Both the position numbers and the translations under genes were made by a program. The notes below the pieces were generated by a model. It was given only the letters and a program-made list of their open reading frames with translations. It did not search any database and had not been told where the DNA came from. Source: Patescibacteria group bacterium (lineage in GTDB: Bacteria > Patescibacteriota > Minisyncoccia > Ryanbacterales > GWA2-47-10b). Taken from it: a stretch of 64,000 nt of DNA. The stretch is taken from the NCBI GenBank assembly GCA_038065475.1, contig JBBTQY010000001.1, forward strand, positions 26,145 to 90,144, given 5' to 3'. Numbering within the stretch: position 1 is the stretch's first letter; each line of letters starts with the position of its first letter. Positions 13,886 to 41,569 of the stretch are shown one piece after another.

Positions 13886-13890
13886 TATTC

Positions 13891-14619: not shown

Positions 14620-14629
14620 GTTCGATCAA

Positions 14630-18389: not shown

Positions 18390-18391
18390 AC

Positions 18392-19690
18392 CTATCGCCC
18401 TATACCATTGTAGATAATATTGGAGTCCAAAAATATATCTTTTTCTAGACAGTTACGCCCGTCTACAATTGTTCTGACTCCATATTTTTTTAGATCATCA
18501 GGAGTAAGTTTCTTGAAAATGCTATGTGCGGTGGCGACGATAACACCGATTGATCCCTGTAAGGCTTCCTCTAAAGTTTTTACATCTGAACGATCAAGTA
18601 CAAATGGATCATAGGCAACCACCTCTGCTCCAAACTCTTTCAAAATTTTAATAATCTCAAACGATGGGCTCTCGCGACAATCATCAATATCTGCCTTATA
18701 TGAAAGTCCCAATACAGCTATGCGTGACCCATTGATAGCAATCTTCTTTTCATTGAGTCCTGCGATCAATTGCTCAACGGCGAAATGGGGCATGCCGTTG
18801 TTTATACGGCGAGCGAGCGCCAAAAAATCATGATCGAAACCATTCTTTTTTGCATACTCAATAAGATAATACGGATCAACAGGTATACAGTGTCCGCCTA
18901 CACCGCAGCCTGGATAGTGAGGCATAAAAGCAAAGGGCTTGGTGGCTGCGCCATCAATTACATTTACTACATCAATGCCGAGGCGTGAGAATGACCGCGC
19001 GAGTTCGTTTACAAATGCAATATTGATATCTCGAAAAGAATTCTCAACAACTTTAACTGCCTCTGCCTCTTTGAGGTTTCCCATCGGCTTTACCGTGCCA
19101 GTCAAAATTGATTCATAAAATGCCACGGCCTTTTTGAGTCCTGCCTCATCAAAGCTGCCAACAACGCGCGGTATATTTTCCACGTTCCATTTTTTATCAC
19201 CCGGATTGATACGCTCAGGACAGTGTGCCAAAGAAAAATCTTTACCACACTCCATGCCGGAGATTGATTCGAGTATCGGTAATACCACGCTCTCTGAAAC
19301 TCCCGGGTTCACTGTTGACTCTAAGATAACTAAGGTATCTTTTTGAAGATACGGAGCAATCGAGCGCACGGCATTTTCCACCGGCTCAAGATTTGGCATA
19401 TGATTTTCATACACCGGTGTTGGTACGCAAATAATCACAATGCCGCAATCTTTAACTACAGAGAAATCATGGGTGGGTGTAAATGAAACTTCCTGCAAAG
19501 CCTGCTCAATCGCCTCATCCTGTATTGGGGATTTCTTTTGTTTTAAGAGCTCTATCTTCTGCTGGCTGACATCTATGCCAAAAACCTCATAGCCCTTGCG
19601 GGCCGCAAGCAAAACAAGCGGAAGACCCACATACCCAAGGCCTACAACCGCTATTTTTTCCTTATCTGGTAATGTTTTTTTGGCCTCCAT
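18392..19690 (-). CDS. nucleotide-sugar dehydrogenase (UDP-glucose / UDP-N-acetylhexosamine 6-dehydrogenase family)
   Basis: N-terminal Rossmann motif IAVVGLGYVGLPLV, central catalytic Cys region, and a C-terminal UDP-binding domain. Confidence 0.85.
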   Translation of the reverse strand: MEAKKTLPDKEKIAVVGLGYVGLPLVLLAARKGYEVFGIDVSQQKIELLKQKKSPIQDEAIEQALQEVSFTPTHDFSVVKDCGIVIICVPTPVYENHMPNLEPVENAVRSIAPYLQKDTLVILESTVNPGVSESVVLPILESISGMECGKDFSLAHCPERINPGDKKWNVENIPRVVGSFDEAGLKKAVAFYESILTGTVKPMGNLKEAEAVKVVENSFRDINIAFVNELARSFSRLGIDVVNVIDGAATKPFAFMPHYPGCGVGGHCIPVDPYYLIEYAKKNGFDHDFLALARRINNGMPHFAVEQLIAGLNEKKIAINGSRIAVLGLSYKADIDDCRESPSFEIIKILKEFGAEVVAYDPFVLDRSDVKTLEEALQGSIGVIVATAHSIFKKLTPDDLKKYGVRTIVDGRNCLEKDIFLDSNIIYNGIGR

Positions 19691-19955
19691 AGTTGGCCTA
19701 GTTTACAATAAAATAATAAAAGAGTCAATAGCTCCCTAGAGTATAGAGAACCATTTCCATTAACAATAACGTTCTAACTGGGGTTGTGTGATGATAACAC
19801 CGCCATCCACCTACTAACTAAGCCTCGTTCGCTTAAGATTTATTACAACCCTATAAACTTATACAACAAAAAGAATTCTTAAAAAGAATACGGTCAGGCC
19901 CAGAAAAAACATTGCGGTCAAAACTGATACTTGCGCCTGTTGAGACATATAATAT

Positions 19956-22900
19956 TTAGAGTTGTGTAATGCTGGCGGCGTTATTTACCCACTGATAGAG
20001 CCCTGTCCAGTTGAGTTTAATAACGCCAACCGCTACGCGATAGGTGCCTGGGCCTGGCGGCGTAAATTCATAGTTAAACACACGAGACTCACCTGCTTGC
20101 AAGGTTTCGCCATTGTAAAATTCTTGGAATACTTGCGTGCCTCCAGCGTCGTACACTTCAAGATTGAGTACTACATGACCGGGTTGAGTGCCGGTATTTT
20201 GAAGGGTCACATCGATATCACGCATACCGGACGCTCCAGTGACCACTGTACTCGCGTGTGTGGGCACAAAATCGGTCATCGGCGTGGTAGATCCGCCCAA
20301 TGACCATGCAGGGTCATTTACATCAACATCCGCCGTTGAACCAAATCGCCCATGGTGACCACTATTTGATCGATCGATAATATCTTGCCCGAAGTTTTCA
20401 TTGAACTTCCAGTATTTGATAAGACCAATCTGAGAGCCGATAAGAGGTTGACCGAGCGTCGCCAAAATATCATCATCTGCACGCACAATATTCCAAACAC
20501 GCATATCCTCGAGAACACCTTTAAATCCCCTTGCGGAATGATCCGCAGGATTGCCGCCGATCACCACAGGAGCTGACGTTTGTGCGATATTGCCCGTTTT
20601 CGGCACCGTTGCGACCACCGCTCCATTTTTATAGAGCCGCATCGCAGCACCGTCATAGCGCGCAGCAATGTGCGTAGTCTCGTTGAGTCCAAATGAACCG
20701 CCAACAAGTTTTGTGACTACACCGTCAGTATTAAGCCTAAAAACAAATTGATTTTGATCATTCACCCCGATAGACCAAACATAATCATTGTCAGTAATAC
20801 CTGTAGCCTTCGCGAGTAGGTCTGCGTTGCGACCAAGCTCTGACGCCTTAAACTCGGCCTCGAAAGTAAAGGTGGGCTCTTCTACGTCCCACACTCCGAT
20901 ATCGACATAATCATTTACACCGTCAAAAACGAGCGCGCCATCGTTATTCGTTGGTATAACAGAAGGTACACTCGCGCAATCGCCAAACCCCTCTGCTGGA
21001 TAACTAAAGATAGCCGTATTATCACCCCACTTATTTTTGACCCATGATGCAGGTCCGGGTGTTTCAAACGATGGATTCTTTACAAGATTGGAAGTATCAT
21101 TACCCTCCTTGCGTACATAAAACTGATCAACAGTTAATGAGCCGACACCATCAATAATATGGAAAAAAGTAACCGTACCTGTATTTGGGGGCGTCAGTAT
21201 AGATGCAGTGGCATCTTGCCATGTTGCTGCGGCGGGCAAAGTACCAAGCCCTCGATATTGTACCGATCCGTCATGCATTCTAAGCACCGCAACAATACGC
21301 GTTGGTACAGTTGCCTTATATTTATCTGAAAAATAATAAGTTAAATCTGATGCAACTACTAACGGCTCGTGATACCACTTGGCATCACCAGTCACATATT
21401 CAGTGATCTCAACTTTCGCTCCACGAACGGTGCAGGCTTCTATTTTTTCATATTCAAAGTTAACGAGTGCAGCGTATGCATTTTCATAGTATTCAAGCTT
21501 CATCGTATGGATTCCGGGTGTCATTTGATGAGTAACAGTATAAGTTGTCGCTGCCTGATCATGCCACTCATCTATGACAAGAACATCATCAACATAAAGC
21601 CGCACACCATCGTCAGCTGTTACAGTAAATTGATAAGTTGCGTCTTCAAAGTCTGCTTGCTTTATCCAGCGCGCTGAGAACCGGTCTGGTTGGATAAGTG
21701 CATGCGGAGAATTAAGCCCCCAATCAAAATTGATCGAGGCATCTTGCTGTACAACGCTCGGAGCTCCGCTCAGATTTATGTTATTGAAATATGATGCGCA
21801 AAATTCATCAGCACCGACGACACCCGATACCGGATAAGAAAAAGTTACCGTATTATCGCCCCAACTATTCTGAGCCCAGTTATCTGATCCTCCCTCTTCA
21901 AATGACCAATCGCTAATAAGATTATTTTCTTGATCTGATATATCGTAAAGTTCATAAGCATCCACTTCCAAAAACCCTACAGATCGAATGAGATGAAAAA
22001 TAGAAATACGTTGAGCATCCTCGGGTACAAAAAACGTTTTTTCGTTTTTTGTCCAGGTGTCAGACGGCGCCACTTCTCCTAACCAGCGGTACAAAAACGT
22101 TCCGTTGGTCAGACGGATTTGCAAAATTAAAGTTGAGGAAACATCTGATCGAGAGTAATTAGAAAAATTATATAATCCAGCGCCTGGCACAACATCTACC
22201 TCTTTCATGCGCCACTTGGCGTCACCGGACGTATATGCCGACATATCAATGCGAGCTGCCTTCGCGCTACAAATATCTTTCTTGGCATACGCAAGTTTTG
22301 CGACCGCCGCAAAACCATTTTCATAATATTCCATACGAATAGTATGGAGCCCCGGAGTGATTGAGCGCTCAACGGTATGAGCTGTCGCTGCTTGATCGTG
22401 CCATTCATCTATGATAGCGACATCGTCAATAAAGAGGCGCACGCCATCATCAGCATTTACCGTGAACTCATATAGCCCTCCATCAAAATTTTCTTGTCGC
22501 GTCCAACGAGCAGAAAAATGGTCATCAGGAATTACAGGATTCGGTGAACCAAGCCCCCAATCAAAATTGATCGAGGCATCACTACGCGTAAGAGCTGGCG
22601 TACCTATCGGCGTTTGAGTATTATAATACTCGCCGATAAAACCATTCGAAGCATCAACTAATCCTATATTAATACTTTTCTTCACAGAAAGACCTTGGGA
22701 ATCTGTTGCTGTTAAAGCAAGCTCGAAATATGTATCACTACCATGATCAGGAACGACGAAGCTACCAGACTCGCCCGTCATATCTAATAGAGGATGGTTA
22801 TGACACGTGCCAAACGGACAATGATGAACAATAACCACCCACTGAAGACTGCCCCCAGCAAGGGCACCGTCCTCAAGGTCACTGGCGGATCCGGAAAAAT

Positions 22901-24497
22901 TCAATGTATCACCTTGATGTACTGATGTTCCGTCAGTTGGAGCGATGATTGTCGCTGTAGGCTGATGATTGCCTGGCTGAATCTGCACAGAAGCCGAACC
23001 GGCTGCATTAAAGCTATCGGTGACAGTTAATGTTACGTTAAATATGCCAGCTGTCGTATATGTATATGTTGGATTTGCCTCTTCAGAGGTTGCCCCGTTA
23101 CCAAAATCCCAATGATAACTAATAGTATTTCCATCTTGGTCGGAAGATCCAGCGCTTGAAAAATGTACAGTCATTGGTACAGAGCCGCCTACTGCATCGG
23201 TAGAAATTTTTGCTGTGGGGGCATGATTATCGCTCGAGTAACGCACGCGCACAATCTCATCAGGATAAATAGAAACATAATAAAGATGCCCATCCGGCCC
23301 CATGGTGATATCCACCGGTGTTGCAACCTGCTGACTAAAAATCTTGTTACTATCAGGAACAAGGTTATTTAAATCGTCCAACCTTAAGGTACGCATTTCA
23401 TTGCGGCCGTAATCACTGAAAAAGAAAGAGCCCTGATACTCAGCCGGGAACTCTGTACCGGTATAAAAAGTACCACCAACTACCGCAGCTCCCGGCGGAT
23501 GATTATACGTATAGAGAGGTTTTGTATCTCCGCCTGCCGCATAAAAATCTTGGCACGCACCCATAAAATGATACCCCTCCTGCTGCTCGTCTCCCTCCCA
23601 ACATGGCCATCCATAATTGCCACCTGGAGTAATAACGTTGATTTCTTCAATAGCCGACCAGCCAACATCGCCTACAACAAGAGTGTTCGTACCAGGCTTA
23701 ATATTAAAACGGTATGGATTGCGAAACCCATATGCCCATACTTTTGAGCGATTTTCGTTTGGATCGCCAGTATAAAAAGGGTTTGATTCAATACCGGTGC
23801 CGTCTGTATTAATGTGTAAAATTTTACCCGCCAAACTATCAAGGTTTTGGGTACGCAACGCAAGCGGATCTACTGTCGTGAATGACGAGGCGTCACCTGA
23901 ACTGACAAAAAGAGTACCATCATCGGCAACCCGAACAGATCCAATAGTATGGCTTGGGGAGTCGCTCGGAATACAATCAGCACCTACGGGAAGATCTTCG
24001 CAAGACGCGGCACTAGCCGTCCCTAAGATGATCGTTTCACTGCCAGGTAGAGCAACATCGCCATCAGCGACAACACGAGAAAGACGACTTGTTTTAGTGC
24101 CAGTGTAATCATCGGGATTATTTTCATAAGTATAGAGTAGATAAATAAAATGGTTCGTCTCAAAGTCCTTATCAAAGGCAAGATCAAGTAAACCACGATC
24201 ATTATAATCATTGACGTGTGAGAGAGTGATAAATGGCGTAGGTAAAACAACACCATCCTTTACAACTTTCACCACTCCTCCCTTTTCCACCACAAACATT
24301 CGGCCATCGGGAGCAAAGCGTGTCGCTACGGGCAAATTAAAACCAGAGGCTACAGACTCAAGGTAAAAACCTGCTGGCAAATCAGTTGCCGCAGCACCCC
24401 ACGATACGGGGATGAAATGCCAAACACTCAAGGCTAAAAAAAGCCCGAGAACTATAGATATTTTTACTTTTATGGATTTCGTTTTCATGCTTAGCAT
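19956..24497 (-). CDS. giant secreted multidomain surface protein: GSDH-like β-propeller + PKD + 2×(PA14 + β-sandwich) + LamG/ConA-like + CARDB-like
   Basis: Signal peptide MKTKSIKVKISIVLGLFLALSV. GSDH motifs (VASGFNLPVATRFAPDGRMFVVEKGG). PKD domain (…YHWDFGNGATS…). Two PA14 domains (…DHFSARWTRQ…DDGVRLFIDDV and …DRFSARWIKQ…DDGVRLYVDDV). LamG-like and CARDB-like C-terminus. The ORF track extends to 24593, but the signal peptide begins at the internal Met (24488/24497), which also removes the overlap with the upstream GT39 gene. Confidence 0.8.
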   Translation of the reverse strand: MLSMKTKSIKVKISIVLGLFLALSVWHFIPVSWGAAATDLPAGFYLESVASGFNLPVATRFAPDGRMFVVEKGGVVKVVKDGVVLPTPFITLSHVNDYNDRGLLDLAFDKDFETNHFIYLLYTYENNPDDYTGTKTSRLSRVVADGDVALPGSETIILGTASAASCEDLPVGADCIPSDSPSHTIGSVRVADDGTLFVSSGDASSFTTVDPLALRTQNLDSLAGKILHINTDGTGIESNPFYTGDPNENRSKVWAYGFRNPYRFNIKPGTNTLVVGDVGWSAIEEINVITPGGNYGWPCWEGDEQQEGYHFMGACQDFYAAGGDTKPLYTYNHPPGAAVVGGTFYTGTEFPAEYQGSFFFSDYGRNEMRTLRLDDLNNLVPDSNKIFSQQVATPVDITMGPDGHLYYVSIYPDEIVRVRYSSDNHAPTAKISTDAVGGSVPMTVHFSSAGSSDQDGNTISYHWDFGNGATSEEANPTYTYTTAGIFNVTLTVTDSFNAAGSASVQIQPGNHQPTATIIAPTDGTSVHQGDTLNFSGSASDLEDGALAGGSLQWVVIVHHCPFGTCHNHPLLDMTGESGSFVVPDHGSDTYFELALTATDSQGLSVKKSINIGLVDASNGFIGEYYNTQTPIGTPALTRSDASINFDWGLGSPNPVIPDDHFSARWTRQENFDGGLYEFTVNADDGVRLFIDDVAIIDEWHDQAATAHTVERSITPGLHTIRMEYYENGFAAVAKLAYAKKDICSAKAARIDMSAYTSGDAKWRMKEVDVVPGAGLYNFSNYSRSDVSSTLILQIRLTNGTFLYRWLGEVAPSDTWTKNEKTFFVPEDAQRISIFHLIRSVGFLEVDAYELYDISDQENNLISDWSFEEGGSDNWAQNSWGDNTVTFSYPVSGVVGADEFCASYFNNINLSGAPSVVQQDASINFDWGLNSPHALIQPDRFSARWIKQADFEDATYQFTVTADDGVRLYVDDVLVIDEWHDQAATTYTVTHQMTPGIHTMKLEYYENAYAALVNFEYEKIEACTVRGAKVEITEYVTGDAKWYHEPLVVASDLTYYFSDKYKATVPTRIVAVLRMHDGSVQYRGLGTLPAAATWQDATASILTPPNTGTVTFFHIIDGVGSLTVDQFYVRKEGNDTSNLVKNPSFETPGPASWVKNKWGDNTAIFSYPAEGFGDCASVPSVIPTNNDGALVFDGVNDYVDIGVWDVEEPTFTFEAEFKASELGRNADLLAKATGITDNDYVWSIGVNDQNQFVFRLNTDGVVTKLVGGSFGLNETTHIAARYDGAAMRLYKNGAVVATVPKTGNIAQTSAPVVIGGNPADHSARGFKGVLEDMRVWNIVRADDDILATLGQPLIGSQIGLIKYWKFNENFGQDIIDRSNSGHHGRFGSTADVDVNDPAWSLGGSTTPMTDFVPTHASTVVTGASGMRDIDVTLQNTGTQPGHVVLNLEVYDAGGTQVFQEFYNGETLQAGESRVFNYEFTPPGPGTYRVAVGVIKLNWTGLYQWVNNAASITQL

Positions 24498-24531
24498 TAC
24501 TAGGATATTCTTAGCACACAACAAGCCCCCA

Positions 24532-26133
24532 TTACAAAGCCTCGGGCACCGTGAGATCGCTGTTTTGATTACAGCCAAGTGTAGCTGCGACACGCTGCGA
24601 CTTGTCTCGAAGCTTATAAATCTTCACATCTTGATACGAATACACGCAATCAAACTCGCTCGCCAACCACTCACCGCTACGAAATCGCTCATCAATACGA
24701 TCTTTTTCTCTTAACACGGCCCAATCAACCGCGCGCTCAGGCGCCTCTAGTGCGGCGCCGAAAAGCTTGGGATCGCCCACATGCACCCAATACTTGAAAG
24801 GAATACGACTTGCAAAAGGCACAGCATCATTATTAAAAATATCGACCAAGATTAAACCGTGATCGTAATTATCTTGCAACCACTCACCCGCTTCCAGTCG
24901 ACTTTCATTGGCGTGCGCTCCGGCAAAACCATCAACAGCCTCATGCAGAGTTATAATATTATTACTAAGCAACATAACACCGTACTCAATAAAAATTACA
25001 ACGAGCATAAAGATACCAACCTTTTGAAATCGCGCCCCGATAACACCGACAAGGATGGCAAAAAATGGCACAAACATAAGTGCGTAGCGAACATTAAATA
25101 TAAGATACGGTGCTAGTTGGGGAACAAAGATAACGGCATTACCGCCAAATATATTGAGAATATAGTAAACGATGTGAACACCTATCAAGAGAACAAAAAG
25201 ATATCTTAATTGTTTATGCTTTAAGATTTGCCACACAATATATATGAGCCCGAAAATGCTAAAAATAATTAAGAACCATCCTGAGACCATTTGCGCCGCA
25301 TACCATATGTGAGCCAGGGTATTTTCAAGGTCGCCACGCGAGGGTAAGAAGCCGGCAGCTGCGAGTGACTCTTGTTGACCCTTCGAAGAATACTCCCCTA
25401 CTGCAAAATAAAATGGGTTATCAAAAATTGCATAATTCCAAGTAAGCCATAGAACGGGGCCGAGGAACGCAAGAGACGCAAATAAAATAATGGTTGCCTC
25501 AACCTTTTTAGAATCTCGAGAAGTAAGATATAAATAGAGAGCAACAACACATACCGTTGCGATAGCAAAAATCCAACCATCATAACGCGATAGCGTCGCG
25601 AATAAAAACGCTACGCCACTGGCGACCAAATAAATATCTTTAAGAGAACGTGCCCACAGCAAAGCATACATTAGAGCACCGAGCATGGCAGCTATATAAA
25701 ACATCTCTGACAAAGGCGTAGCCTGCATATAAAGCGTATTGGGATTTAGCATAAAGATAAGAGCTGCCAAACCCCCAGCAATCGGTCCTGCCAAAGTCTC
25801 TCCAATTTTGAAAAGAAACCATGAAGCAAGAATGTAAGCGAGCATCGAGAAAAAAATACCAGCAAACCCCGAATAGTAGAGAAAATCTATCCAGATAAAC
25901 GGCAGCATAACAAGGCTTGGTGCAGGCAACCATACATATCCCAATTGAGAAAATCCCGGAGACGTGCCGTCGACCACACGTCGCGACAAATTTAATCGAG
26001 CGGTGGCATCACCGCTAGCATTAGCGAGATCAAGATACATTACTAAAGCCGTCACGACCAAGCTCAAGAAAATAGCTAGAGCTAAAACAAAATATTTTAT
26101 ATATGGTTTATATTTTTCGATCATAGCAATCAT
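24532..26133 (-). CDS. GT39/PMT_2-family membrane glycosyltransferase (protein O-mannosyltransferase / ArnT-like)
   Basis: 533 aa with ~12 TM helices and the loop/TM layout of the PMT_2/ArnT superfamily. 4-bp overlap with the upstream GT2. Confidence 0.65.
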   Translation of the reverse strand: MIAMIEKYKPYIKYFVLALAIFLSLVVTALVMYLDLANASGDATARLNLSRRVVDGTSPGFSQLGYVWLPAPSLVMLPFIWIDFLYYSGFAGIFFSMLAYILASWFLFKIGETLAGPIAGGLAALIFMLNPNTLYMQATPLSEMFYIAAMLGALMYALLWARSLKDIYLVASGVAFLFATLSRYDGWIFAIATVCVVALYLYLTSRDSKKVEATIILFASLAFLGPVLWLTWNYAIFDNPFYFAVGEYSSKGQQESLAAAGFLPSRGDLENTLAHIWYAAQMVSGWFLIIFSIFGLIYIVWQILKHKQLRYLFVLLIGVHIVYYILNIFGGNAVIFVPQLAPYLIFNVRYALMFVPFFAILVGVIGARFQKVGIFMLVVIFIEYGVMLLSNNIITLHEAVDGFAGAHANESRLEAGEWLQDNYDHGLILVDIFNNDAVPFASRIPFKYWVHVGDPKLFGAALEAPERAVDWAVLREKDRIDERFRSGEWLASEFDCVYSYQDVKIYKLRDKSQRVAATLGCNQNSDLTVPEAL

Positions 26134-32244: not shown

Positions 32245-32835
32245 TCAAACACCAACGTGCACAAGTGCAAGAAGTGCCCAGATACCAATCGTATTGAGCA
32301 CGAAAGATATGATTAAAAATGTTTTATTACTCATGCGCGAGAGACCTAAAAGCCCTACGCCCAGCTCGTCCGGTAGCGGTGAGGCAACAATAATTGCGCC
32401 GATAACGGGCGTAATCATACTAAAATAGCGCGAACGAAATACGTGCAAAATATGGAACCTCTTTATACCACCGAAAAGATGTTTGAGATCTTCTGCGAGG
32501 CCGTCTCGTACAAATCGAAAGATAAAATAATCACCTAGCGAGGCACCAAAACCCGCGCATAAGGCAGTTAGAAATATACTATCAAGCTCGCTACCCAAGA
32601 GTATCAACGCCGCCGATGCGGGTATGACAGTAAATGAGCTTACAAACGCCATCCCTACAGCAAACACGCTTATATACCCATACCCGTCAATATGCGTAAT
32701 AACATATTGAAAAATGTGTGCCTGCCAAAACGCCCACGTCAGCACAACGCTCGCAAGAAATGCGGTAACGTTATGATAAATATACCGATGATGATTATTT
32801 GACTTCATTGGGTTTTTTCTGCCACAAAAGGGCAC
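32245..32835 (-). CDS. hypothetical polytopic membrane protein
   Basis: ~5 TM helices. Start may be the internal Met at ~32808. Confidence 0.45.
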   Translation of the reverse strand: MPFCGRKNPMKSNNHHRYIYHNVTAFLASVVLTWAFWQAHIFQYVITHIDGYGYISVFAVGMAFVSSFTVIPASAALILLGSELDSIFLTALCAGFGASLGDYFIFRFVRDGLAEDLKHLFGGIKRFHILHVFRSRYFSMITPVIGAIIVASPLPDELGVGLLGLSRMSNKTFLIISFVLNTIGIWALLALVHVGV

Positions 32836-33013
32836 GACTCAGCACCATACCTACCGCAACACCTATCAAAAATCCACCGATAGCGGCAGGTGTTTGTAAT
32901 GGTACTGCAGCCACTGGGGGCTCTTCGTGCGGTTCATCAGACGCGTGCGCACTCAGAGTCAACGGCACCGCAAGTACCGTCACCATAAAACATACGCCAA
33001 AAAACTTTTTCAT
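32795..33013 (-). CDS. small exported/anchored protein
   Basis: 72 aa with a signal peptide and a C-terminal TM. 4-bp overlap with the upstream gene. Confidence 0.4.
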   Translation of the reverse strand: MKKFFGVCFMVTVLAVPLTLSAHASDEPHEEPPVAAVPLQTPAAIGGFLIGVAVGMVLSRALLWQKKPNEVK

Positions 33014-33525
33014 AGTATTTTTTTATAGACAACAAAGCGCGCGAATACAAATCCAACTATCAAGCCGGCTATCGCAGCGTAAATCAAAGCGATAGCATCA
33101 CTCGCCTGCTCTCGAGGCTGTATGTCGAGCAAATAATCTTCAGCGTGAAAGATTTTTTTAGGCTCATCCGCAAACGCAAAATCAATATAGATCTCATGAA
33201 ATCCTTCTTCGGTAAAATCATAGGTATACCCCACGGTCGAGCGTTCAGCTTTGATGTCGCGTTCTTCAAAAATAAATTGCGGCTCGTCCCCCGGGCTTGC
33301 GAGTCGCGCTACACGTATATGCATAATTGCATCGTGATCAAGTACATTGCCTGACTTGATGTCTGATATTGAGATAAGAAGCTTGGTGGGTGTGCCTACA
33401 CGCGGTGTGAATGGCGCGCGCGACATGGTGACAATATATTTGCCATCAACCACACGCTGCTCGCCACCATGCGCACCCGCCAAAAACGGCAGAACAAAAA
33501 ATAGCGCGAAAAATATTTTTTTCAT
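33010..33525 (-). CDS. YtkA/FixH-like exported β-sandwich protein with C-terminal TM anchor
   Basis: Signal peptide. …PRVGTPTKLLISISDIKSGNVLDHDAIMHIRVA… resembles the repeats in the periplasmic domain of 8155..10083. C-terminal TM. Confidence 0.45.
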   Translation of the reverse strand: MKKIFFALFFVLPFLAGAHGGEQRVVDGKYIVTMSRAPFTPRVGTPTKLLISISDIKSGNVLDHDAIMHIRVARLASPGDEPQFIFEERDIKAERSTVGYTYDFTEEGFHEIYIDFAFADEPKKIFHAEDYLLDIQPREQASDAIALIYAAIAGLIVGFVFARFVVYKKIL

Positions 33526-34181
33526 TAGTATTCCTTGCCCGTCATCTGGGGCACATATTCGGGGCCCTTATCACGATAGCGATCAATGAAATCTTGTACG
33601 CGCACAGCATCAAAACTGCCATCGGCATTGAGATTGAACGTATCGAGCCGATTCCATGCAGCCAAAGCTACGTCAGTTTCATTAGCATTTCTGATGCTTA
33701 CTACTATGCGCACATTGTCACGTGCGATTGCCTTGAGTGCCTCTTTGGTGCTCTCGGGAATACTTGATTTATAGGAAATCCAAATGCGACCGTGCTCGAG
33801 CGAATGCACTACGCCCTCTTCGGGCAATTCTTTGTCATAAACCCCGTCACGCTGAGGGTCGGGCCAGTGCGGGCCTGATGTGGGCGGGTTTGATTTCCAA
33901 GTGGTTGTCTTTTCACCTTCTGTTGTATGATCGCTTCCAGCATCTTCAGTAGCGCGCGAATAATCAGTACCCAATTCACGAGCCTCTGGCAATGAACGGT
34001 AGATAAAATACCCGCCAGAGACAACAAGCAATACAATCAAAACCCAAAAGCCAATCTTTTTTGCTTTGCGCATTTGTACGCGGCGCAGCGCTGCGGCATC
34101 ACGCGCGGCGCGCTCTGCCATGCGCTGGTCTTTTTTAGTTGGCCCCTCTGCTATTTGAGGTTGTATTTGCTCATCTTCCAT
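33525..34181 (-). CDS. DUF3105-domain membrane-anchored protein
   Basis: …SGPHWPDPQRDGVYDKELPEEGVVHSLEHGRIWISYKS… matches the DUF3105 signature. Confidence 0.7.
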   Translation of the reverse strand: MEDEQIQPQIAEGPTKKDQRMAERAARDAAALRRVQMRKAKKIGFWVLIVLLVVSGGYFIYRSLPEARELGTDYSRATEDAGSDHTTEGEKTTTWKSNPPTSGPHWPDPQRDGVYDKELPEEGVVHSLEHGRIWISYKSSIPESTKEALKAIARDNVRIVVSIRNANETDVALAAWNRLDTFNLNADGSFDAVRVQDFIDRYRDKGPEYVPQMTGKEY

Positions 34182-34199: not shown

Positions 34200-34991
34200 T
34201 CACGGGCCGAAAAGCGAGTTTTGCTTTTTGACTCTTGGTTTTTTGCCAAGCGGCTTCAAGGCCTTTTCTGCCTCAGCGCGATACAAGCAATATTGGCAAC
34301 CGCCGCCTGATGGTGGCAACTCGTCGCCGGAAAACGCTTGATGAATAGCTTTGATGGTGCCTTCAAGCCATGAGTCATCGCCTATGTACGGGATAATCTT
34401 TACATCAAATTCAAGCTTGGCATCAAACGCCGCGCGGTCACGCTTGCCATTGGCGTACACAAAATAACCAGTATTGGAAACTTTGAAACCAACGCGACGC
34501 AACAACCACTGATAGATCTCCATCTGACGCTTATAGCCATCTTGCCATTCGGCATCAAGAGTTACCTCGGTATCTTTGCTGGTAGCTTTGTAATCAACCA
34601 CGTGGAGTTCGCCCTTGGGGTTTACCCAAATATCATCAACGGCTCCTGTGATAATAAAGTTGGTCGGCTCGTGATGATACTGCACTCCCACAAAGTTCTC
34701 GCGCCACCTGTCTATCTCCGGGTGATCAAAAGGAATAGCATCAACACCATAATGTTCCATGAGCGGATGCGCGTTGCCACGCGCCCGATGCACATCAAAT
34801 TCTTTTTTGAGCAAATGATCAACCGCGCTGTTGAGATTAAATGGATACCCATCAGGCTCGGAGACACCCAAACGCCTATCAAGATATGAACAGCGCGGGC
34901 AGCGCATATAATTTTCGATCTTTGAGCGCGAGAGTCGAAAAGGAGCCGAAGATTTGGGATCGTAAATATTTGATCTACGCCTGACAGCCAT
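34200..34991 (-). CDS. PD-(D/E)XK nuclease, Cas4-like with Cys cluster (stand-alone)
   Basis: N-terminal CPRCSY, core GAVDDIW…ELHVVDYKAT (D…E-x-K), and C-terminal CQYC. No CRISPR or cas genes nearby. Confidence 0.7.
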   Translation of the reverse strand: MAVRRRSNIYDPKSSAPFRLSRSKIENYMRCPRCSYLDRRLGVSEPDGYPFNLNSAVDHLLKKEFDVHRARGNAHPLMEHYGVDAIPFDHPEIDRWRENFVGVQYHHEPTNFIITGAVDDIWVNPKGELHVVDYKATSKDTEVTLDAEWQDGYKRQMEIYQWLLRRVGFKVSNTGYFVYANGKRDRAAFDAKLEFDVKIIPYIGDDSWLEGTIKAIHQAFSGDELPPSGGGCQYCLYRAEAEKALKPLGKKPRVKKQNSLFGP

Positions 34992-35458
34992 TAGATTGAT
35001 TTTTGATCAGCCAATACTTGATCTGCATGCTCTTTGGGTTTTACCTCACTATACATCTTGGCGATCTTGCCCTCAGGATTTATGAGAAACGACATACGCC
35101 TCGTACCCATATACGTGCGCCCCATAAATTTCTTCTCACCCCACACACCATACGCCTCTACCATTTTTTTGTCAGTATCGGCTAAAAGTGGAAATGGCAA
35201 CTGATACTTTCGGGCAAATTTTTCATGCGAAGTAATCGAGTCAGTGGATACTCCCAATATCGCTATCTTTGATTTTTTAAAATCAGTAAAACTATCACGA
35301 ATAGTACACGCCTCGGTGGTGCATCCCGGAGTATCGTCTTTGGGATAGAAATAAATCAGCAACCACTTGCCCACATAATCTTTGAGCGAGTGGTTGGTGC
35401 CCGACTGATCGGGCAAATTAAATGCTGGCGCTTTAGATCCTTCTTTGAGTTGTGCCAT
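34991..35458 (-). CDS. bcp: thiol peroxidase / peroxiredoxin Bcp
   Basis: FYPKDDTPGCTTEAC active-site motif. Internal Met at 35458 chosen as start. Confidence 0.85.
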   Translation of the reverse strand: MAQLKEGSKAPAFNLPDQSGTNHSLKDYVGKWLLIYFYPKDDTPGCTTEACTIRDSFTDFKKSKIAILGVSTDSITSHEKFARKYQLPFPLLADTDKKMVEAYGVWGEKKFMGRTYMGTRRMSFLINPEGKIAKMYSEVKPKEHADQVLADQKSI

Positions 35459-35463
35459 GCTCC

Positions 35464-35661
35464 TTAGTGTAGCGAGATCAGCGAAGAAAACCAACCCGAG
35501 CGAATACCGCTACGCTCAAGACGTGCGAGCTGCCTCGTGAGCATGCGATGACGCTCAGCATCTTTGCGATATGGTCTGCCGCGTAAGATCTTGATATCAA
35601 TGCGATCATTGACCCGGCCAATCTCGTGAACGATGCTTTTGTGAAGTTGTGTTTTGCTCAT
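35464..35661 (-). CDS. hypothetical small basic protein in the lexA operon
   Basis: 65 aa, sandwiched between lexA and bcp with 5–10 nt gaps. Confidence 0.35.
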   Translation of the reverse strand: MSKTQLHKSIVHEIGRVNDRIDIKILRGRPYRKDAERHRMLTRQLARLERSGIRSGWFSSLISLH

Positions 35662-35670
35662 ATAGATGGG

Positions 35671-36240
35671 TTAGCGATATTTTCTGATAATGCCGGTTAC
35701 GACCGCGCCGATGTTGAGTGATTCTTCGGCAAATATTGGTTTGAAATTTCTATTTGCAGGCTCGAGATACGTAGCACCATTTTTCTTGCGTAAATATTTC
35801 ATGGTCCATCCGCCATCAACTTCAGCTATGACGATATCTCCCTCTTTCGCGGCTCTACCGTGCTCTGCTACTACCAAATCACCATCGCGTATACCTGCCT
35901 CAATCATCGAATCGCCTTTTACAGTCAGTACATACGTATGTTCGCGATTTCTGATCAAAAGTTGATCGATACTGATCATTTCGGCTGCTTCTTCGGCGAG
36001 CGACGGGATGCCAGCTTCTACTACACCAAGCATTTTAACTTCACCGAGCATGCTGGTGGGCACCAGGCGCCCTTGCGAATCTTTGTCGAGCACGCCCATC
36101 CCTATCAATTTATCAACTACTTTGGAGACAGCGTTTTTTGATTTGAAGCCCAATATGGCAGCAATCTCGCCATAACTTGGCATGCGCCGATTGCCTTCAT
36201 AAAAGTTTAAAATTTTTGATTTGTAACGCTCAATACTCAT
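35671..36240 (-). CDS. lexA: LexA repressor
   Basis: N-terminal winged HTH and C-terminal S24 peptidase domain (VKGDSMIEAGI, …KYLRK…). Internal Met MSIERYK taken as start. Confidence 0.85.
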   Translation of the reverse strand: MSIERYKSKILNFYEGNRRMPSYGEIAAILGFKSKNAVSKVVDKLIGMGVLDKDSQGRLVPTSMLGEVKMLGVVEAGIPSLAEEAAEMISIDQLLIRNREHTYVLTVKGDSMIEAGIRDGDLVVAEHGRAAKEGDIVIAEVDGGWTMKYLRKKNGATYLEPANRNFKPIFAEESLNIGAVVTGIIRKYR

Positions 36241-36253
36241 GCAATTATCATAA

Positions 36254-36269
36254 GTGAACGGTCGTTCAC
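36254..36269. promoter_or_regulatory. LexA box (Cheo-box type GAAC-N4-GTTC), autoregulatory
   Basis: Perfect palindrome GTGAACGGTCGTTCAC 14 nt upstream of the lexA start codon. Confidence 0.6.
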
Positions 36270-36380
36270 CGCGCAAGACGTAACACACAAAAAGTTGTGG
36301 ACAACTGCGTGTATCTTTACAAAAAAGCTCATGTGTGATTTGGTAAAGAAGAACCGCAACTTACAACGAAAGGAGCAGCG

Positions 36381-36950: not shown

Positions 36951-36952
36951 AC

Positions 36953-36988
36953 CCCCAAGCACTCGATGCTTGGGGGGATTTTTTATTC
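36953..36988 (+). terminator. rho-independent terminator
   Basis: cccccaagcactcgatgcttgggggg hairpin followed by a TTTTTTAT run. Confidence 0.55.
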
Positions 36989-37013: not shown

Positions 37014-37186
37014 TCAGCGGCGATATAACGTAGCGAGATTTTCGCCCTCGAGCTGCAAGGCTACAGCTTCTTCGATATTCTTTGCAAGCTCATCGAGCGT
37101 AGACGCCTCTGTCACAACAGGCAAATCAACCCCTTCCGCCACATAAGAGTGTTCACCGCGCGTGATACGAAATTGGATGATATTTT
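37014..37186 (-). pseudogene. possible HicB/UPF0150-like antitoxin remnant
   Basis: Reverse-strand frame …FRITRGEHSYVAEGVDLPVVTEASTLDELAKNIEEAVALQLEGEN… resembles the HicB N-terminal domain but has no ATG; an in-frame TAA lies just upstream. Confidence 0.25.
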
Positions 37187-37299
37187 AATAACACAGTGCC
37201 TCTACGTAGACAAACAGCTATTTATATGGTACTAATAATACGAATTTGATCTTCAACAACGAGAACGAAAGTTCTCCTGACGGGAAAGGAAACACGAAA

Positions 37300-37866
37300 A
37301 TGAAAACGCAAAACGGACGACCGACCTGCAAGACAAACCTCTGGGCAGCGATCAACCACACGGCGATCCTACTCGCCTTCATCATCGGCTTCATCGCCGG
37401 CAGCATCGCCACCGCGCATGCCGAGGCGCTATGCCGACCCAAGAGCGGAGTAGCCGTGCGTGTGCGTACCGAATGCAAGAAGCAGGAAGTGCAGCTCGAC
37501 CCGATCACCCTCGGCCTGCAAGGCCCTGCTGGCCCCACCGGCCCGCAAGGTCCTGAAGGAATACTGCCAGCGGGCTTCCTCCCAACTCCGGCATTCGACA
37601 GCGGCTGGATCGAACTACCGAACCATGGCGCGGTCATCGATGTACCACACAACGTCGGAGGAGATTACAACGACTACTTCATCGAAGCCAGCTACAGACG
37701 GCCCGCTGAAAACGGTACGCTGAAATCTCATCAAACCGCAGCGGATGTTATCTGGTGGGAAGACGTGACACCAAATAACATCCAAATCGTCACAAATGGA
37801 GATGTGACGAACAACTTCGATGCAGCGCGTATCAGAATCTGGATCATTCACCAGGGCCAGCCCTGA
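37300..37866 (+). CDS. secreted protein with collagen-like (GXY)5 repeat
   Basis: Signal peptide, then GLQGPAGPTGPQGPEG, then a ~100-aa C-terminal β-rich domain. GC-rich. AAGGA SD-like element. Confidence 0.55.
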   Translation: MKTQNGRPTCKTNLWAAINHTAILLAFIIGFIAGSIATAHAEALCRPKSGVAVRVRTECKKQEVQLDPITLGLQGPAGPTGPQGPEGILPAGFLPTPAFDSGWIELPNHGAVIDVPHNVGGDYNDYFIEASYRRPAENGTLKSHQTAADVIWWEDVTPNNIQIVTNGDVTNNFDAARIRIWIIHQGQP

Positions 37867-37922: not shown

Positions 37923-38642
37923 TTCAAAAATTATTTTTGCGTCAATCGCATCTGCCCACAGTTTGTATCCAGCATCGCTCGGATGAAAGCGGTCATTGGC
38001 ATAATATATATCAGGCTCATTTTGAAAATGCCCTTCATCAACCGCATACATATTGACGTATGTTACGTTTGGCATATCTTTTATAACGCTCGATACATGC
38101 CCACCGAGCTGTGAGCTTCCGCGTGACCAAAATTTGCGCACGGGATATGGCATATTGAGCACGTCGCCCAAATCACCCGGCGTGAGCAACACGATACGCT
38201 TTGTTTTTTTTGACACGGCATCAAGCGCATTTTGTAAATCACGCTCAAAGCTTGACCACCGGGTCGCATGCGTTACATTATTGCCACCGATCGATATGAT
38301 GGCAAGATCGCTATCGCGCATTTCTGTTATTTGACTCATCAAGTCACCCACACGCGCACCGACTATACCTTTGTTTTCTACATCAAAAGAATATGTATCT
38401 TTATGTCGTTCTAAAACTTGATAATGATACGTCTTTGTATAATCGCTCGCTCCCGTACCTACTGACGCACTATCACCAAGCACTGTTACTATTAATTTTT
38501 TAGAATCGCCCTCGATAATATAATTTTTTGCTGGCGTTACCTCTATCAACGCCCAGGTACGACTCAGATAAAACCAAAAACGCGCACCTGACGCGAGCGT
38601 ATAAACCACCAAAAATATAATAATCGCTTTAATAAATATCAT
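37920..38642 (-). CDS. SGNH/GDSL-family hydrolase, membrane anchored
   Basis: N-terminal TM. Block I VLGDSASVG, block III IGGNNV, block V DRFHPSDAGY. Confidence 0.7.
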   Translation of the reverse strand: MIFIKAIIIFLVVYTLASGARFWFYLSRTWALIEVTPAKNYIIEGDSKKLIVTVLGDSASVGTGASDYTKTYHYQVLERHKDTYSFDVENKGIVGARVGDLMSQITEMRDSDLAIISIGGNNVTHATRWSSFERDLQNALDAVSKKTKRIVLLTPGDLGDVLNMPYPVRKFWSRGSSQLGGHVSSVIKDMPNVTYVNMYAVDEGHFQNEPDIYYANDRFHPSDAGYKLWADAIDAKIIFE

Positions 38643-38899
38643 GTACGTGGCTTGTATCCTTCGGCGCGTAATTTTTGCGCTTTTACTTTTGTGCCGCCCA
38701 TACTGTACCCACCGAGTGTGCCGTCACTGCGAATCACGCGGTGACATGGTATCTGTGGGCTGCGGTTAGTACCGATGATATTGCCCACCGCACGCTGGGC
38801 ACGTGGGTTACCCGCGCGGCGAGCTACCTCACTATACGTGAGTACTTTACCTCGAGGAATCTTTTTTACTATTGAAAAAACTTTATCGCGAAAGGTCAT
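38639..38899 (-). CDS. MGMT-family (methylated-DNA–protein-cysteine methyltransferase DNA-binding domain) protein
   Basis: IPCHRVIRSDGTLGGY contains the PCHR active-site motif. Short single-domain form. Internal Met start. Confidence 0.65.
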   Translation of the reverse strand: MTFRDKVFSIVKKIPRGKVLTYSEVARRAGNPRAQRAVGNIIGTNRSPQIPCHRVIRSDGTLGGYSMGGTKVKAQKLRAEGYKPRT

Positions 38900-40339: not shown

Positions 40340-41569
40340 ATGCCTGAGGTGCTTGCGGTCGCTCTGCCGCTCTCGAAACTCGCGCGTGAACTCTACTTCA
40401 CCGATGTTTTTGACGTGCTCATGGTGACCATCATCATGTATGCGGGGCTCATGCTCTTTAAACGGACACGTTCAAACTCGGTCTTTGCGGGCATCGCCAT
40501 CGTGGTAGGTATCTACGCCGTCTCGCAAGTATTCAACCTCTATCTTACCTCACTCATACTGCGCGCATTCTTTGGCGTATTTATCGTAGTATTGGTAGTC
40601 ATTTTTCAAGACGAGCTGCGAAGATTTTTTGAATTTTTAGCTCTTCTCGGCACACGCCGTGAACAGCGCGATGAAGCCATGGCGGTCTCGCCCCTTATTA
40701 ATAGCCTGTTGCAGGCGGCAACCAACCTTGCGTACCGGAAGATTGGGGCACTCGTCATACTCAGTGGTATAGAAAACATTGACCGACATGTGGAAGGCGG
40801 ACGGGTGGTTGATGGTATCGTCTCACAAGAACTTTTGGAAAGTATTTTTGATCCCACCTCGCCCGGACACGATGGCGCTGTCATCATCAGACACAATCGT
40901 ATCGCTATGCTCGGCACTCATCTGCCACTCTCAAATGATTTTGAACAAATTGGTAAATATGGCACGCGACACGCCGCAGGCCTCGGTATCGCCGAGCGAT
41001 CTGATGCGCTCGCACTCATCGTCTCTGAAGAGCGGGGGCAGATCTCGATCGCGCAAAATGGTAAATTTGAAACCTTTGATGATATCAGCAAAGTAGAAGA
41101 TCGCCTGCGCGATTTCTTTCGCGTTAAATTCCCGCGCGAAGCGTCACCCGTGTGGCGCAATATTGTTCGCAGAAACACAAGCGAAAAAATAGGCGCACTC
41201 GCCATCTCGTCAGTCCTTTGGTTTTTCTTAGTATATCAAACGGGAACCGTGCGACGTGATTTTGTAGTCCCCATCACCTACCGCAATCTCAATGAGACAC
41301 TGGTGGTTGAAACCTCAAACCCCAAGGAGATCACTATCACACTCGAATCACGCGGACGCGCATTTGACCAGCTTGATCCTGCATCACTCGAGATACTGGT
41401 GGATGCCAGCGGCTTTACACCCGGTAAGAAAAAGCTTGTCATTGGTGACAACATGGTCAAACGGCCACTCACCTTCTCGGTCATCTCACTCTCACCACCC
41501 AACATTCAGCTGACTATCGGTAAATCTCCCGAAATACTAGAGACTGATTTGGCACCTCAGGGCCGCTAG
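40340..41569 (+). CDS. cdaA: diadenylate cyclase CdaA fused to a YbbR (CdaR-like) domain
   Basis: Three N-terminal TMs, then a DAC domain (DGAVIIRHNRI, GTRHAAGLGIAERSDALALIVSEERGQISIAQNGK). This is followed by an additional TM and a YbbR-like β domain (…ILVDASGFTPGKKKLVIGDNMV…). Confidence 0.8.
   Translation: MPEVLAVALPLSKLARELYFTDVFDVLMVTIIMYAGLMLFKRTRSNSVFAGIAIVVGIYAVSQVFNLYLTSLILRAFFGVFIVVLVVIFQDELRRFFEFLALLGTRREQRDEAMAVSPLINSLLQAATNLAYRKIGALVILSGIENIDRHVEGGRVVDGIVSQELLESIFDPTSPGHDGAVIIRHNRIAMLGTHLPLSNDFEQIGKYGTRHAAGLGIAERSDALALIVSEERGQISIAQNGKFETFDDISKVEDRLRDFFRVKFPREASPVWRNIVRRNTSEKIGALAISSVLWFFLVYQTGTVRRDFVVPITYRNLNETLVVETSNPKEITITLESRGRAFDQLDPASLEILVDASGFTPGKKKLVIGDNMVKRPLTFSVISLSPPNIQLTIGKSPEILETDLAPQGR

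Follow-up and report, generated by a model that had tools for sequence, protein, structure and literature searches.

Patescibacteria (Candidate Phyla Radiation) are mostly uncultured bacteria with minimal genomes, and their DNA-damage sensing and repair are poorly understood. In the genome considered here, a lexA gene is closely followed on the same strand by a small ORF (ORF65), the peroxiredoxin gene bcp, and a gene for a Cas4-like nuclease. The locus raises the question of whether the nuclease and the peroxiredoxin are under SOS control, as a sequence-only reading of the window—the whole 64-kb stretch of DNA analyzed—had proposed, or whether they simply happen to lie behind lexA. The features of the locus are collected in Table 1; it was compared with 80 related lexA loci from metagenomes and with 80 fetched nuclease loci.

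Table 1. Features of the lexA locus, with positions in the window
Feature	Position	Strand	Remarks
lexA promoter	36247..36276	-	Sequence reading, architecture kept in relatives; putative promoter function
LexA box GAACGACCGTTC	36256..36267	.	Extended palindrome GTGAAC-N4-GTTCAC, within the promoter spacer
lexA, 189 aa	35671..36240	-	Putative N-terminal DNA-binding domain and S24 autopeptidase domain
ORF65, 65 aa	35464..35661	-	Conserved small protein, lexA partner
bcp	34991..35458	-	Thioredoxin-dependent peroxiredoxin, Bcp/PrxQ type
RecB-family PD-(D/E)XK nuclease, Cas4-like fold, 263 aa	34200..34991	-	PF12705 match and motifs
DUF3105 membrane-anchored protein	33525..34181	-	Next gene of the string, 18 nt past the nuclease
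Three overlapping or abutting ORFs	32245..33525	-	171 aa (signal peptide and C-terminal TM), 72 aa, ~187 aa (multi-TM)

The four genes from lexA to the nuclease all lie on the minus strand and are separated by 9 nt (lexA–ORF65), 5 nt (ORF65–bcp), and −1 nt (bcp–nuclease, a TAATG overlap), the bcp ATG being placed at 35458 and not at 35452. The sequence-only reading had described them as codirectional with gaps of at most 10 nt or overlaps and had named lexA, bcp, and the nuclease; the positions bear out the former, and profile matches agree with the latter. Its bounding of the operon at 34200 has to be given up, as the same tight string goes on to ~32245 and comprises eight genes counted from lexA. 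The three ORFs at its far end have no Pfam match. The only terminator-like site between 36240 and 34200 is a weak stem of 5 bp within the nuclease gene, and a terminator scan gave no convincing terminator ahead of 32245. Tight codirectional packing is the norm in this genome, and hence spacing alone says little on function: of the window's 71 pairs of adjacent genes, 32 (45%) are codirectional with a gap of at most 20 nt, and the median codirectional gap is 9.5 nt. A DUF3105 gene lies 3' of the nuclease gene also in the relatives L081, L164, and L166; this gene and the membrane-protein genes further down the string have no obvious damage-response role. The window contains neither recA nor another SOS gene and no tRNAs, and its 30- to 40-kb part has no Rfam family match.

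The lexA product features a Peptidase_S24 domain (PF00717; 88.3 bits, cut-off 23.3). Residues 17–188 align with positions 22–202 of the 203 positions of the LexA model TIGR00498 at 110.3 bits, 0.65 bits under the cut-off of 110.95, and PF01726 (LexA_DNA_bind) gives no match to the protein at E ≤0.01. Across Paceibacterota there are orthologues at 60–65% identity, which the source annotations call LexA. The cleavage site A76–G77 and the catalytic dyad S111/K148 are invariant in 16 LexA orthologues.

The lexA promoter consists of a −35 element TTGCGC (36276–36271), an 18-nt spacer, and a −10 element TATGAT (36252–36247) located 6 nt from the ATG. This geometry is of the leaderless type and suggests a leaderless transcript. 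The arrangement TTGCRY-N17/18-TAT(G/C)AT-N6-ATG is kept in the relatives L081 and L084 (LexA identity 92%) and L164 (71%). The LexA box sits between −35 and −10, 16 nt ahead of the lexA start codon, with the operator reading GTGAACGACCGTTCAC. The LexA box of the Gram-positive type, the "Cheo box," is GAAC-N4-GTTC, and the operator of the window shares both its half-sites, GAAC and GTTC, and its 4-nt spacer. The bare 12-mer pattern occurs twice in the window versus 0.84 times expected, which is not significant alone, two or more matches being reached in 20 of 100 shuffles; the box becomes significant because it sits in the promoter spacer, extends to GTGAAC-N4-GTTCAC, and is conserved before orthologous lexA units. 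Of the 80 orthologous loci, 62 have an equivalent palindrome in front of the gene that opens the lexA unit; among them are all 32 with the order ORF65–lexA. Only nine such boxes are found in 812 kb of unrelated patescibacterial DNA, so that the frequency at lexA units is ~300-fold higher, and the LexA box that had been claimed at lexA is genuine. With a matrix trained on 60 orthologous sites, whose median score is 27.3 bits, it reaches 25.3 bits and is the sole high-scoring site in the 64 kb. Judged by this operator in its own promoter, LexA would bind there and regulate its own synthesis. Two further sites were rejected. A second GAAC-N4-GTTC at 37263–37274, located 25 nt upstream of a collagen-repeat gene, is treated as a chance match: it lacks the GT/AC flanks, scores 15.0 bits versus 25.3, and is not conserved in L084, the relative at 92%. 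A third, weak site at 40388–40399 scores 9.7 bits and lies inside the cdaA coding region.

ORF65 belongs to an unannotated small-protein family found beside lexA in about half of patescibacterial lexA loci. Its homologues adjoin lexA in 40 of the 80 loci—32 upstream and 8 downstream—and one more locus carries a copy elsewhere. The family has at least 249 members, all of them patescibacterial and all labeled "hypothetical"; ORF65 has no match in Pfam, NCBIfam, PHROG, PADLOC, or PDB. Its AF2 model (pLDDT 86) features a helical hairpin and an aromatic C-terminal tail, and a fold search with it returned only generic helical hairpins at E >1. The window carries the same LexA orthologue, box, and ORF65 as the typical patescibacterial lexA unit, but differs from it in two respects: the typical order is mostly ORF65 then lexA, whereas lexA comes before ORF65 in the window, and elsewhere a Y-family polymerase is the commonest downstream cargo (14 of 80 loci), whereas the window has bcp and the nuclease.

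YneA, ChiZ/Rv2719c, and DivS are small SOS-induced cell-division inhibitors encoded beside lexA in Gram-positive bacteria. By analogy only, ORF65 resembles them: it is small, adjoins lexA as a conserved neighbor, and shares the LexA-box-controlled region. Unlike them, it is modeled as a helical hairpin that looks soluble and ends in a short aromatic tail; it is similar to these proteins in neither sequence nor fold and lacks a LysM domain and a clear transmembrane segment. A tentative reading, which we consider possible but rather doubtful, takes ORF65 for a core LexA-box-controlled SOS gene of Patescibacteria that may encode an effector—a division or growth inhibitor like YneA, ChiZ, or DivS—or a modulator of LexA, and at the same time takes the placement of the nuclease behind lexA for a first contextual clue that this enzyme serves damage repair and not defense.

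Bcp matches the thiol peroxidase model NF006960 at 181.8 bits (cut-off 140) and AhpC-TSA at 142 bits; its active site PGC-x4-C reads PGCTTEAC in the translation. Ahead of the gene, inside the 3' end of ORF65, lies a weak promoter-like element, TTGGTT-N17-TACACT-N7-ATG, which could allow for LexA-independent expression. It agrees with the consensus at 7 of 12 positions and failed the promoter scan; a TAnnnT at such a distance is found before ~20% of the genes in the window, whether first in their unit or not (6 of 29 versus 8 of 37). Shine–Dalgarno motifs precede less than 20% of the genes in the window, and because of this rarity their presence or absence is uninformative.

The nuclease matches PF12705 (PDDEXK_1) at 51.4 bits (cut-off 22) and has a fold like that of Cas4, Dna2, Exo5, and AdnA. 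The residues C31-x2-C34, D133-Y-K135, and C232-Q-Y-C235, together with Q156 and Y160, are invariant in all 121 aligned family members, and D120 is kept in 120; the residues that the sequence-only reading had named (CxxC, DYK, CQYC) are hence all present. Its designation as Cas4-like stands as far as RecB motifs, fold, and PADLOC profiles are concerned—the last match nearly over the full length at E ~1e-10, although they carry no curated cut-off—but HMM searches place the protein below the Cas4 cut-offs of TIGR00372 (41 versus 65 bits) and PF01930 (17.7 versus 22.7 bits). A sequence search of solved structures with the nuclease and its family profile gave spurious matches only. The C-terminal Fe–S-type cluster proposed earlier can be kept as a metal site, since the presence of four Cys residues makes a staple-like site still likely, but Fe–S is uncertain: the pattern is 2+2 (C31xxC34/C232xxC235), with a third C-terminal Cys absent in 119 of 121 members, whereas the "iron staple" of Cas4 and AddB has the pattern 1+3, C...CxxCx5C (PMC3466216), and the DUF3799 protein of related fold in PDB 3L0A binds zinc (PMC3466216). 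The set behind this comparison includes the nuclease domains of AddB and AdnA/B, Cas4 (SSO0001), Dna2, Exo5, and the Zn-containing 3L0A (PMC3466216); unlike these iron-staple RecB nucleases, the protein of the window has its putative ligands in two CxxC motifs and lacks a helicase, whether fused or adjacent.

More than 8000 close homologues at 60–70% identity occur across Patescibacteria, which argues for vertical and strongly constrained inheritance, and at least 579 stretches of species-representative genomes encode a relative. Distant or longer relatives in the representative search bear uninformative names, one being "DUF2779" and one "Cas4." No CRISPR-like repeats are found in the 64-kb window, and no cas gene is found among ~30 of its ORFs scanned against Pfam or among the genes called in related loci, in line with the missing CRISPR context noted before. 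The earlier view that such a solo nuclease is uncommon has to be reversed in light of the number of homologues and of the solo-Cas4 already described in genomes from the Candidate Phyla Radiation and DPANN by Hudaiberdiev et al. 2017 (PMC5704561). With these the nuclease shares the stand-alone Cas4-like RecB architecture, four Cys residues, vertical inheritance, and the occurrence in small-genome environmental bacteria lacking CRISPR–Cas. It differs from them in scoring as PF12705 instead of PF01930, below the Cas4 cut-offs, and in having ~80 extra residues and the 2+2 Cys pattern. In the 76 loci analyzed of the 80 fetched, the neighbors are scattered housekeeping genes without a conserved neighborhood and without defense islands. 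An enrichment of repair genes beside the nuclease was considered and rejected: uracil-DNA glycosylase (four loci), ExoIII, PolA, and Nth (three each) among 410 neighbor ORFs are, by a rough estimate, about random. Ubiquity without a fixed neighborhood fits a housekeeping role. The nuclease is regarded as a near-universal, stand-alone RecB/Cas4-like enzyme of Patescibacteria and not as a CRISPR or defense component; most likely, it is a metal-stapled exonuclease or end-processing enzyme of housekeeping DNA repair and recombination, presumably acting 5'-to-3' on ssDNA.

The linkage of lexA to bcp and the nuclease is confined to a narrow group. It occurs in the lineage of the window and in L164, and is absent in L083, L166, L167, and L002; the order lexA–ORF–bcp–(DUF3298)–nuclease–DUF3105 is kept in a relative with 72% nuclease identity. 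The other 78 of the 80 lexA loci have neither bcp nor the nuclease, which are found downstream only in the lineage of the window. None of the 80 nuclease loci has a LexA box within 400 nt upstream or lexA upstream on the same strand. This absence from both sets speaks against long-term selection on the linkage across the phylum, and the nuclease family as a whole is not characterized by SOS control. The linkage has the look of a local rearrangement, not of a new system. The SOS network of Patescibacteria has reportedly been the subject of a study by Sanchez-Osuna, Barbe and Erill (Environ Microbiol 2017).

How far bcp and the nuclease are controlled by LexA depends on where their transcripts start. 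The account we lean toward, with moderate confidence, is that of an ordinary autoregulated SOS unit (lexA and ORF65) of a Paceibacterota-type bacterium that now lies directly upstream of a pre-existing bcp–nuclease–DUF3105 block, into which the lexA promoter is proposed to read through. Such read-through into the nuclease is likely, as the genes lie only 9, 5, and −1 nt apart with no terminator among them, features from which co-transcription is predicted. Alternatively, the lexA–ORF65 cassette came to lie upstream by chance, the genome being compact, and bcp, the nuclease, and the later genes owe most of their expression to an internal promoter, independent of LexA, in the 3' end of ORF65, in which case nuclease and peroxiredoxin are not meaningfully SOS-regulated. 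We hold this incidental adjacency to be unlikely, though several observations favor it. In relatives with 70–75% nuclease identity (L083, L166, L167) and in L002, bcp and the nuclease head a unit of their own behind a clear promoter, canonical TTxxxx-N17-TATGAT-N6-ATG, without lexA or LexA box, and in the window a TAnnnT persists 7 nt ahead of the bcp start codon, with a −35 of the TTG type at 17 nt. Moreover, both genes are of the housekeeping kind, the nuclease being ubiquitous in the phylum; tight packing is common in the genome, and LexA boxes are lacking at all 80 nuclease loci. However, the internal element is the one that matches poorly and failed the scan, its TAnnnT being of a frequency found before genes in any position, and even an active promoter there would not keep lexA-promoter transcripts out of bcp, as no terminator separates the genes. 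In addition, the −10 element TATGAT of the lexA-less relatives has decayed to TACACT or TAGTAT in all three lexA-linked loci, as expected if expression now comes from upstream. The earlier claim of an SOS-regulated nuclease and oxidative-stress enzyme thus survives in part: the box is real and the genes from lexA to the nuclease leave no room for a terminator, but the linkage is lineage-specific, the sole operator in the window is that of lexA, and an operator kept across related genomes that would place bcp and the nuclease in the SOS regulon is not found.

Two other explanations concern the nature of the proteins. Were the nuclease a true Cas4-type or defense enzyme, active in spacer acquisition or against phages, its link to LexA would represent damage- or phage-induced activation of defense. 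The nearly full-length PADLOC matches point this way, as do source labels such as "CRISPR/Cas system-associated exonuclease Cas4" on some homologues, but the scores below curated cut-offs, the 2+2 Cys pattern, the lack of CRISPR-like repeats and of cas genes among annotated neighbors, the housekeeping surroundings, and the constrained inheritance make it highly improbable. Barely credible is a mobile-element or prophage origin, by which "LexA" would be a CI/UmuD-like S24 repressor and the gene string part of an integrated element instead of a chromosomal SOS unit. PHROG families of UmuD-like proteins and repressors do match the S24 domain, the LexA score is marginally under its cut-off, and the position of the lexA–ORF65 cassette differs among genomes. 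Against this, the Paceibacterota orthologues keep the length of 188 aa and the A–G, S, and K residues, the box is of the classical GAAC-N4-GTTC type, and the Y-family translesion polymerase that most commonly follows lexA elsewhere is typical SOS cargo. The neighboring genes serve core metabolism and the envelope and keep their synteny (M17 peptidase, CdaA, BacA), and no integrase or phage gene was found among the nearby ORFs scanned.

On the favored account of read-through from an autoregulated lexA unit, LexA would bind GTGAAC-N4-GTTCAC within its own promoter's spacer, thereby repressing transcription. Upon DNA damage, RecA-stimulated self-cleavage at A76–G77 by S111/K148 would relieve this repression. 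Transcripts from the lexA promoter would then most likely continue through ORF65, bcp, the nuclease, and the membrane-protein genes, by which the downstream genes would gain a basal level set by LexA and a damage-inducible boost. The lexA–dinF operon of Escherichia coli is an autoregulated lexA operon with co-transcribed cargo. The locus of the window resembles it in having lexA as first gene, a palindromic operator overlapping its own promoter, and downstream genes without an intervening terminator. It differs in its cargo—a peroxiredoxin, a RecB/Cas4-like nuclease, and membrane proteins in place of dinF—in the promoter geometry, which suggests a leaderless transcript, and in being limited to one patescibacterial lineage.

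As read from its sequence, the locus would present a canonical and clearly autoregulated LexA circuit in a patescibacterium with a minimal genome. In one lineage, a ubiquitous Cas4-like nuclease and a peroxiredoxin probably ride on an SOS promoter; should the nuclease be linked by nothing more than read-through in its compact genome, the finding would be ordinary. The position of the nuclease behind lexA is a weak hint that the "solo Cas4" of Patescibacteria is a repair enzyme. ORF65, conserved beside lexA, could be a missing SOS effector of the phylum.

The genes lexA, ORF65, bcp and the nuclease gene follow one another on the minus strand, with bcp and the nuclease gene sharing one base (TAATG overlap). 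This four-gene layout with lexA and a LexA box, as proposed by the sequence-only reading, is borne out by coordinates, domain matches and box position. The tight run extends past the nuclease gene to 32245 through the genes of a DUF3105 protein and three membrane or secreted proteins, giving eight genes in total. The intergenic gaps from lexA to the nuclease gene are too short to hold a terminator, and none is predicted in between except for a weak stem within the nuclease gene. Such compact packing is normal for this genome: the minus strand carries 57 of the 72 crude gene calls of the window, co-directional pairs with gaps of ≤20 nt make up 45% of adjacent gene pairs, and further tight runs of six to seven genes occur. 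Since this kind of packing is common in the window, the spacing favors physical read-through and not a functional module. A DUF3105 gene lies 3′ of the nuclease gene in the window and in the relatives L081 and L164 (LexA identity 92% and 71%) and L166 (lexA-less); within the clade this linkage is as conserved as that of bcp and the nuclease gene.

Features of the window around the lexA unit and elsewhere
Feature	Position	Strand	Description
lexA (189 aa)	35671-36240	-	Peptidase_S24 domain; TIGR00498 LexA model
ORF65	35464-35661	-	9 nt after lexA; no family match
bcp	34991-35458	-	5 nt after ORF65; NF006960 thiol peroxidase, 181.8 bits vs cut-off 140; active site PGC-x4-C
Nuclease gene (263 aa)	34200-34991	-	PF12705 PDDEXK_1, 51.4 bits vs cut-off 22
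DUF3105 membrane-anchored protein	33525-34181	-	Directly after nuclease gene
LexA box	36256-36267		12 bp
lexA -10-like hexamer	36247-36252		TATGAT
Hairpin	36952-36976		Strong, 10 bp, GC-rich, between A and T runs; resembles bidirectional terminator
42-aa ORF	37014-37142	-	Beside hairpin; weak sub-threshold DUF1902 match (E 0.009)
Second box	37263-37274		GAACGAAAGTTC; 25 nt upstream of next gene
Secreted or anchored protein (188 aa)	37300-37866	+	Collagen-like GPAGPTGPQGPEG repeat
Alkyltransferase domain (86 aa)	38639-38899	-	Stand-alone O6-alkylguanine-DNA alkyltransferase C-terminal domain; PCHR active-site motif
Glycoside hydrolase family 6 protein	12653-13885	-	
Surface protein (1545 aa)	19956-24593	-	Glucose/sorbosone dehydrogenase, PKD, PA14, laminin-G domains
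Low-GC block	14000-20000		GC 38-40% (46-53% elsewhere)
Six-gene run	12653-19690	-	Run across which GC drops

The TIGR00498 LexA model covers residues 17-188 of the lexA product with 110.3 bits, 0.65 bits below the curated cut-off. Aligned with 15 orthologues of 59-90% identity, the protein shares with all of them the Ala76-Gly77 cleavage site and the Ser111/Lys148 dyad. The window is part of a patescibacterial (Candidate Phyla Radiation, CPR) genome; for LexA as well as for the nuclease, the closest homologues are encoded by MAGs of 'Patescibacteria group', Paceibacterota, Taylorbacteria, Uhrbacteria and the like. Upstream of lexA, the sequence up to the start reads TTGCGC-GGT-GAACGACCGTTC-ACT-TATGAT-AATTGC-ATG: the LexA box lies within the 18-nt spacer between the -35-like and -10-like hexamers, and the latter ends 6 nt 5′ of the start codon, a leaderless-type geometry. 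By itself, the 12-mer pattern lacks significance: the 64 kb contain two matches where 0.84 are expected. Among 80 metagenome loci encoding LexA orthologues, 62 carry an exact GAAC-N4-GTTC no more than 200 nt 5′ of the gene that opens the lexA unit; the background frequency is nine such boxes per 812 kb of unrelated patescibacterial DNA. On an operator matrix built from 60 lexA-locus sites (consensus aGGTGAAC-N4-GTTCACCt), the lexA box of the window reaches 25.3 bits, against a training median of 27.3, and no other site in the window is good. The architecture of promoter and box is kept base for base in the relatives with LexA identities of 92% and 71%. As judged by these comparisons, the evidence for a genuine LexA and operator is strong; LexA would bind at the box and be cleaved upon DNA damage. 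The second box is probably a chance match because it is without the GT/AC flanks and is not kept in the 92% relative. The TATGAT-N6-ATG signature, with its -10 hexamer 6 nt from the start codon, recurs at lexA of the window and at bcp of the lexA-less relatives L002, L083, L166 and L167; it points to leaderless transcripts. Fewer than 20% of the genes in the window are preceded by a Shine-Dalgarno motif.

The nuclease belongs to a very large family with strong conservation. A homologue search yields >8000 candidates below 1e-3, the best 120 at 63-92% identity; relatives are encoded in at least 579 stretches of species-representative genomes, and 436 clusters at E ≤1e-30, mostly stand-alone proteins of ~250 aa, are found among 1.84 billion cluster representatives. 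D133-Y-K135, Q156...Y160, C31, C34, C232 and C235 are invariant across 121 family members and D120 is retained in 120 of them; the catalytic residues named from the sequence are hence right and the core is intact. The AlphaFold model (pLDDT 84) matches the RecB-type 5′-3′ exonuclease clade, and Foldseek concurs, which makes the predicted structure Cas4-like in fold. Scores are 11.1 for Cas4-Cas1, 10.5 for Dna2, 10.4 each for the Zn-containing DUF3799 protein 3L0A, RecE and Type I-C Cas4, 10.3 for AdnA, 10.1 for SSO0001, 9.8 for Exo5 and 9.7 for MGME1. The protein is not demonstrably a Cas4: it stays under the curated Cas4 cut-offs (TIGR00372, 41 vs 65; PF01930, 17.7 vs 22.7). Canonical Cas4 and AddB bind through one N-terminal and three C-terminal Cys (PMC3466216), whereas the nuclease features a 2+2 arrangement (CxxC...CxxC), and the third C-terminal Cys is absent from 119 of the 121 members; the site may carry either Fe-S or Zn. 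The window has no CRISPR array, and no cas genes occur among its scanned ORFs or in related loci, in agreement with the lack of CRISPR context first noticed. Calling such a nuclease uncommon does not hold, since CPR genomes without CRISPR-Cas were already reported to carry stand-alone Cas4 of unknown function (PMC5704561).

Across 80 nuclease loci from species-representative genomes, bcp precedes the nuclease gene once (L002), an S24-family gene lies nearby once (L005; opposite strand, 30% identity to LexA of the window), and no LexA box is found within 400 nt upstream of the nuclease gene. The neighbors in the 76 analysable loci are scattered housekeeping genes without conserved context. Conversely, of the 80 lexA loci, only L084 and L085, both of the window's lineage, have bcp and the nuclease gene 3′ of lexA. 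The commonest gene 3′ of lexA encodes a Y-family (DinB/UmuC-like) DNA polymerase (14 of 80 patescibacterial loci, e.g., L116 at 6353-7654); this more typical SOS cargo is absent from the window. The order lexA-ORF-bcp-nuclease-DUF3105 is retained in a relative with 88% nuclease identity, and in another, at 72% identity for the nuclease and 71% for LexA, the order is M17 peptidase-MGMT-lexA-ORF63-bcp-DUF3298-nuclease-DUF3105. Relatives with 75% and 70% nuclease identity carry M17 peptidase-bcp-nuclease without lexA and box, and L002 carries MGMT-bcp-nuclease. These gene orders indicate that the bcp-nuclease(-DUF3105) block is older than the lexA linkage; within a family-level clade, the lexA-ORF65 cassette was either inserted before the block or lost from this place. 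An alkyltransferase gene lies directly upstream of bcp-nuclease or lexA in L002 and L164 and thus belongs to the ancestral neighborhood.

In lexA-less genomes, the bcp promoter is a clean TTxxxx-N17-TATGAT-N6-ATG, and in the three lexA-linked loci the -10 hexamer is TACACT or TAGTAT; in this sample of only three against four loci, such decay would fit a dependence on the lexA promoter further upstream. A weak promoter-like element persists before bcp in the window, but elements of like quality precede ~20% of the window's genes. We moderately favor substantial read-through from the lexA unit into both genes under LexA control, and regard expression predominantly independent of LexA as the less likely alternative. 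The original reading of an SOS-regulated nuclease and peroxiredoxin is partly supported: the LexA unit is real, and both genes are probably co-transcribed with it. The lexA link is a recent juxtaposition in a compact genome, restricted to one lineage, and the nuclease is an ordinary phylum-wide solo RecB/Cas4-like enzyme.

Elsewhere in the window, the 42-aa ORF, read from its weak DUF1902 match as a HicB-like antitoxin fragment, is kept in L084, a lexA locus of the same lineage. The low-GC block may be horizontally acquired. The glycoside hydrolase and the 1545-aa surface protein are large extracellular proteins in a bacterium with a small genome.

The most novel part of the region is ORF65. 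Its homologues adjoin lexA on the same strand in 40 of the 80 lexA loci (tblastn), immediately upstream in 32 and immediately downstream, as in the window, in eight; one additional locus has its copy elsewhere. A LexA box lies upstream of ORF65 in all 32 ORF65-first loci, and in the window and the lexA loci L086-L161 it precedes whichever of the two genes is first. The family, with at least 249 members, is exclusively patescibacterial, labelled 'hypothetical' throughout and without Pfam domain. N18, I21, D22, Y31 and H38 are invariant, and the C-terminal tail is aromatic or hydrophobic. The AlphaFold model (pLDDT 86) is a confident hairpin of two helices, residues 3-27 and 32-53, followed by a disordered tail; profile, PDB and fold searches give no match. 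As judged by comparative sequence analysis, ORF65 is a genuine gene whose partnership with lexA is conserved. Gram-positive bacteria encode small SOS-induced division inhibitors beside lexA, and by analogy, a role of ORF65 as an SOS effector would be a reasonable guess. The ORF65-lexA partnership merits follow-up ahead of the nuclease.
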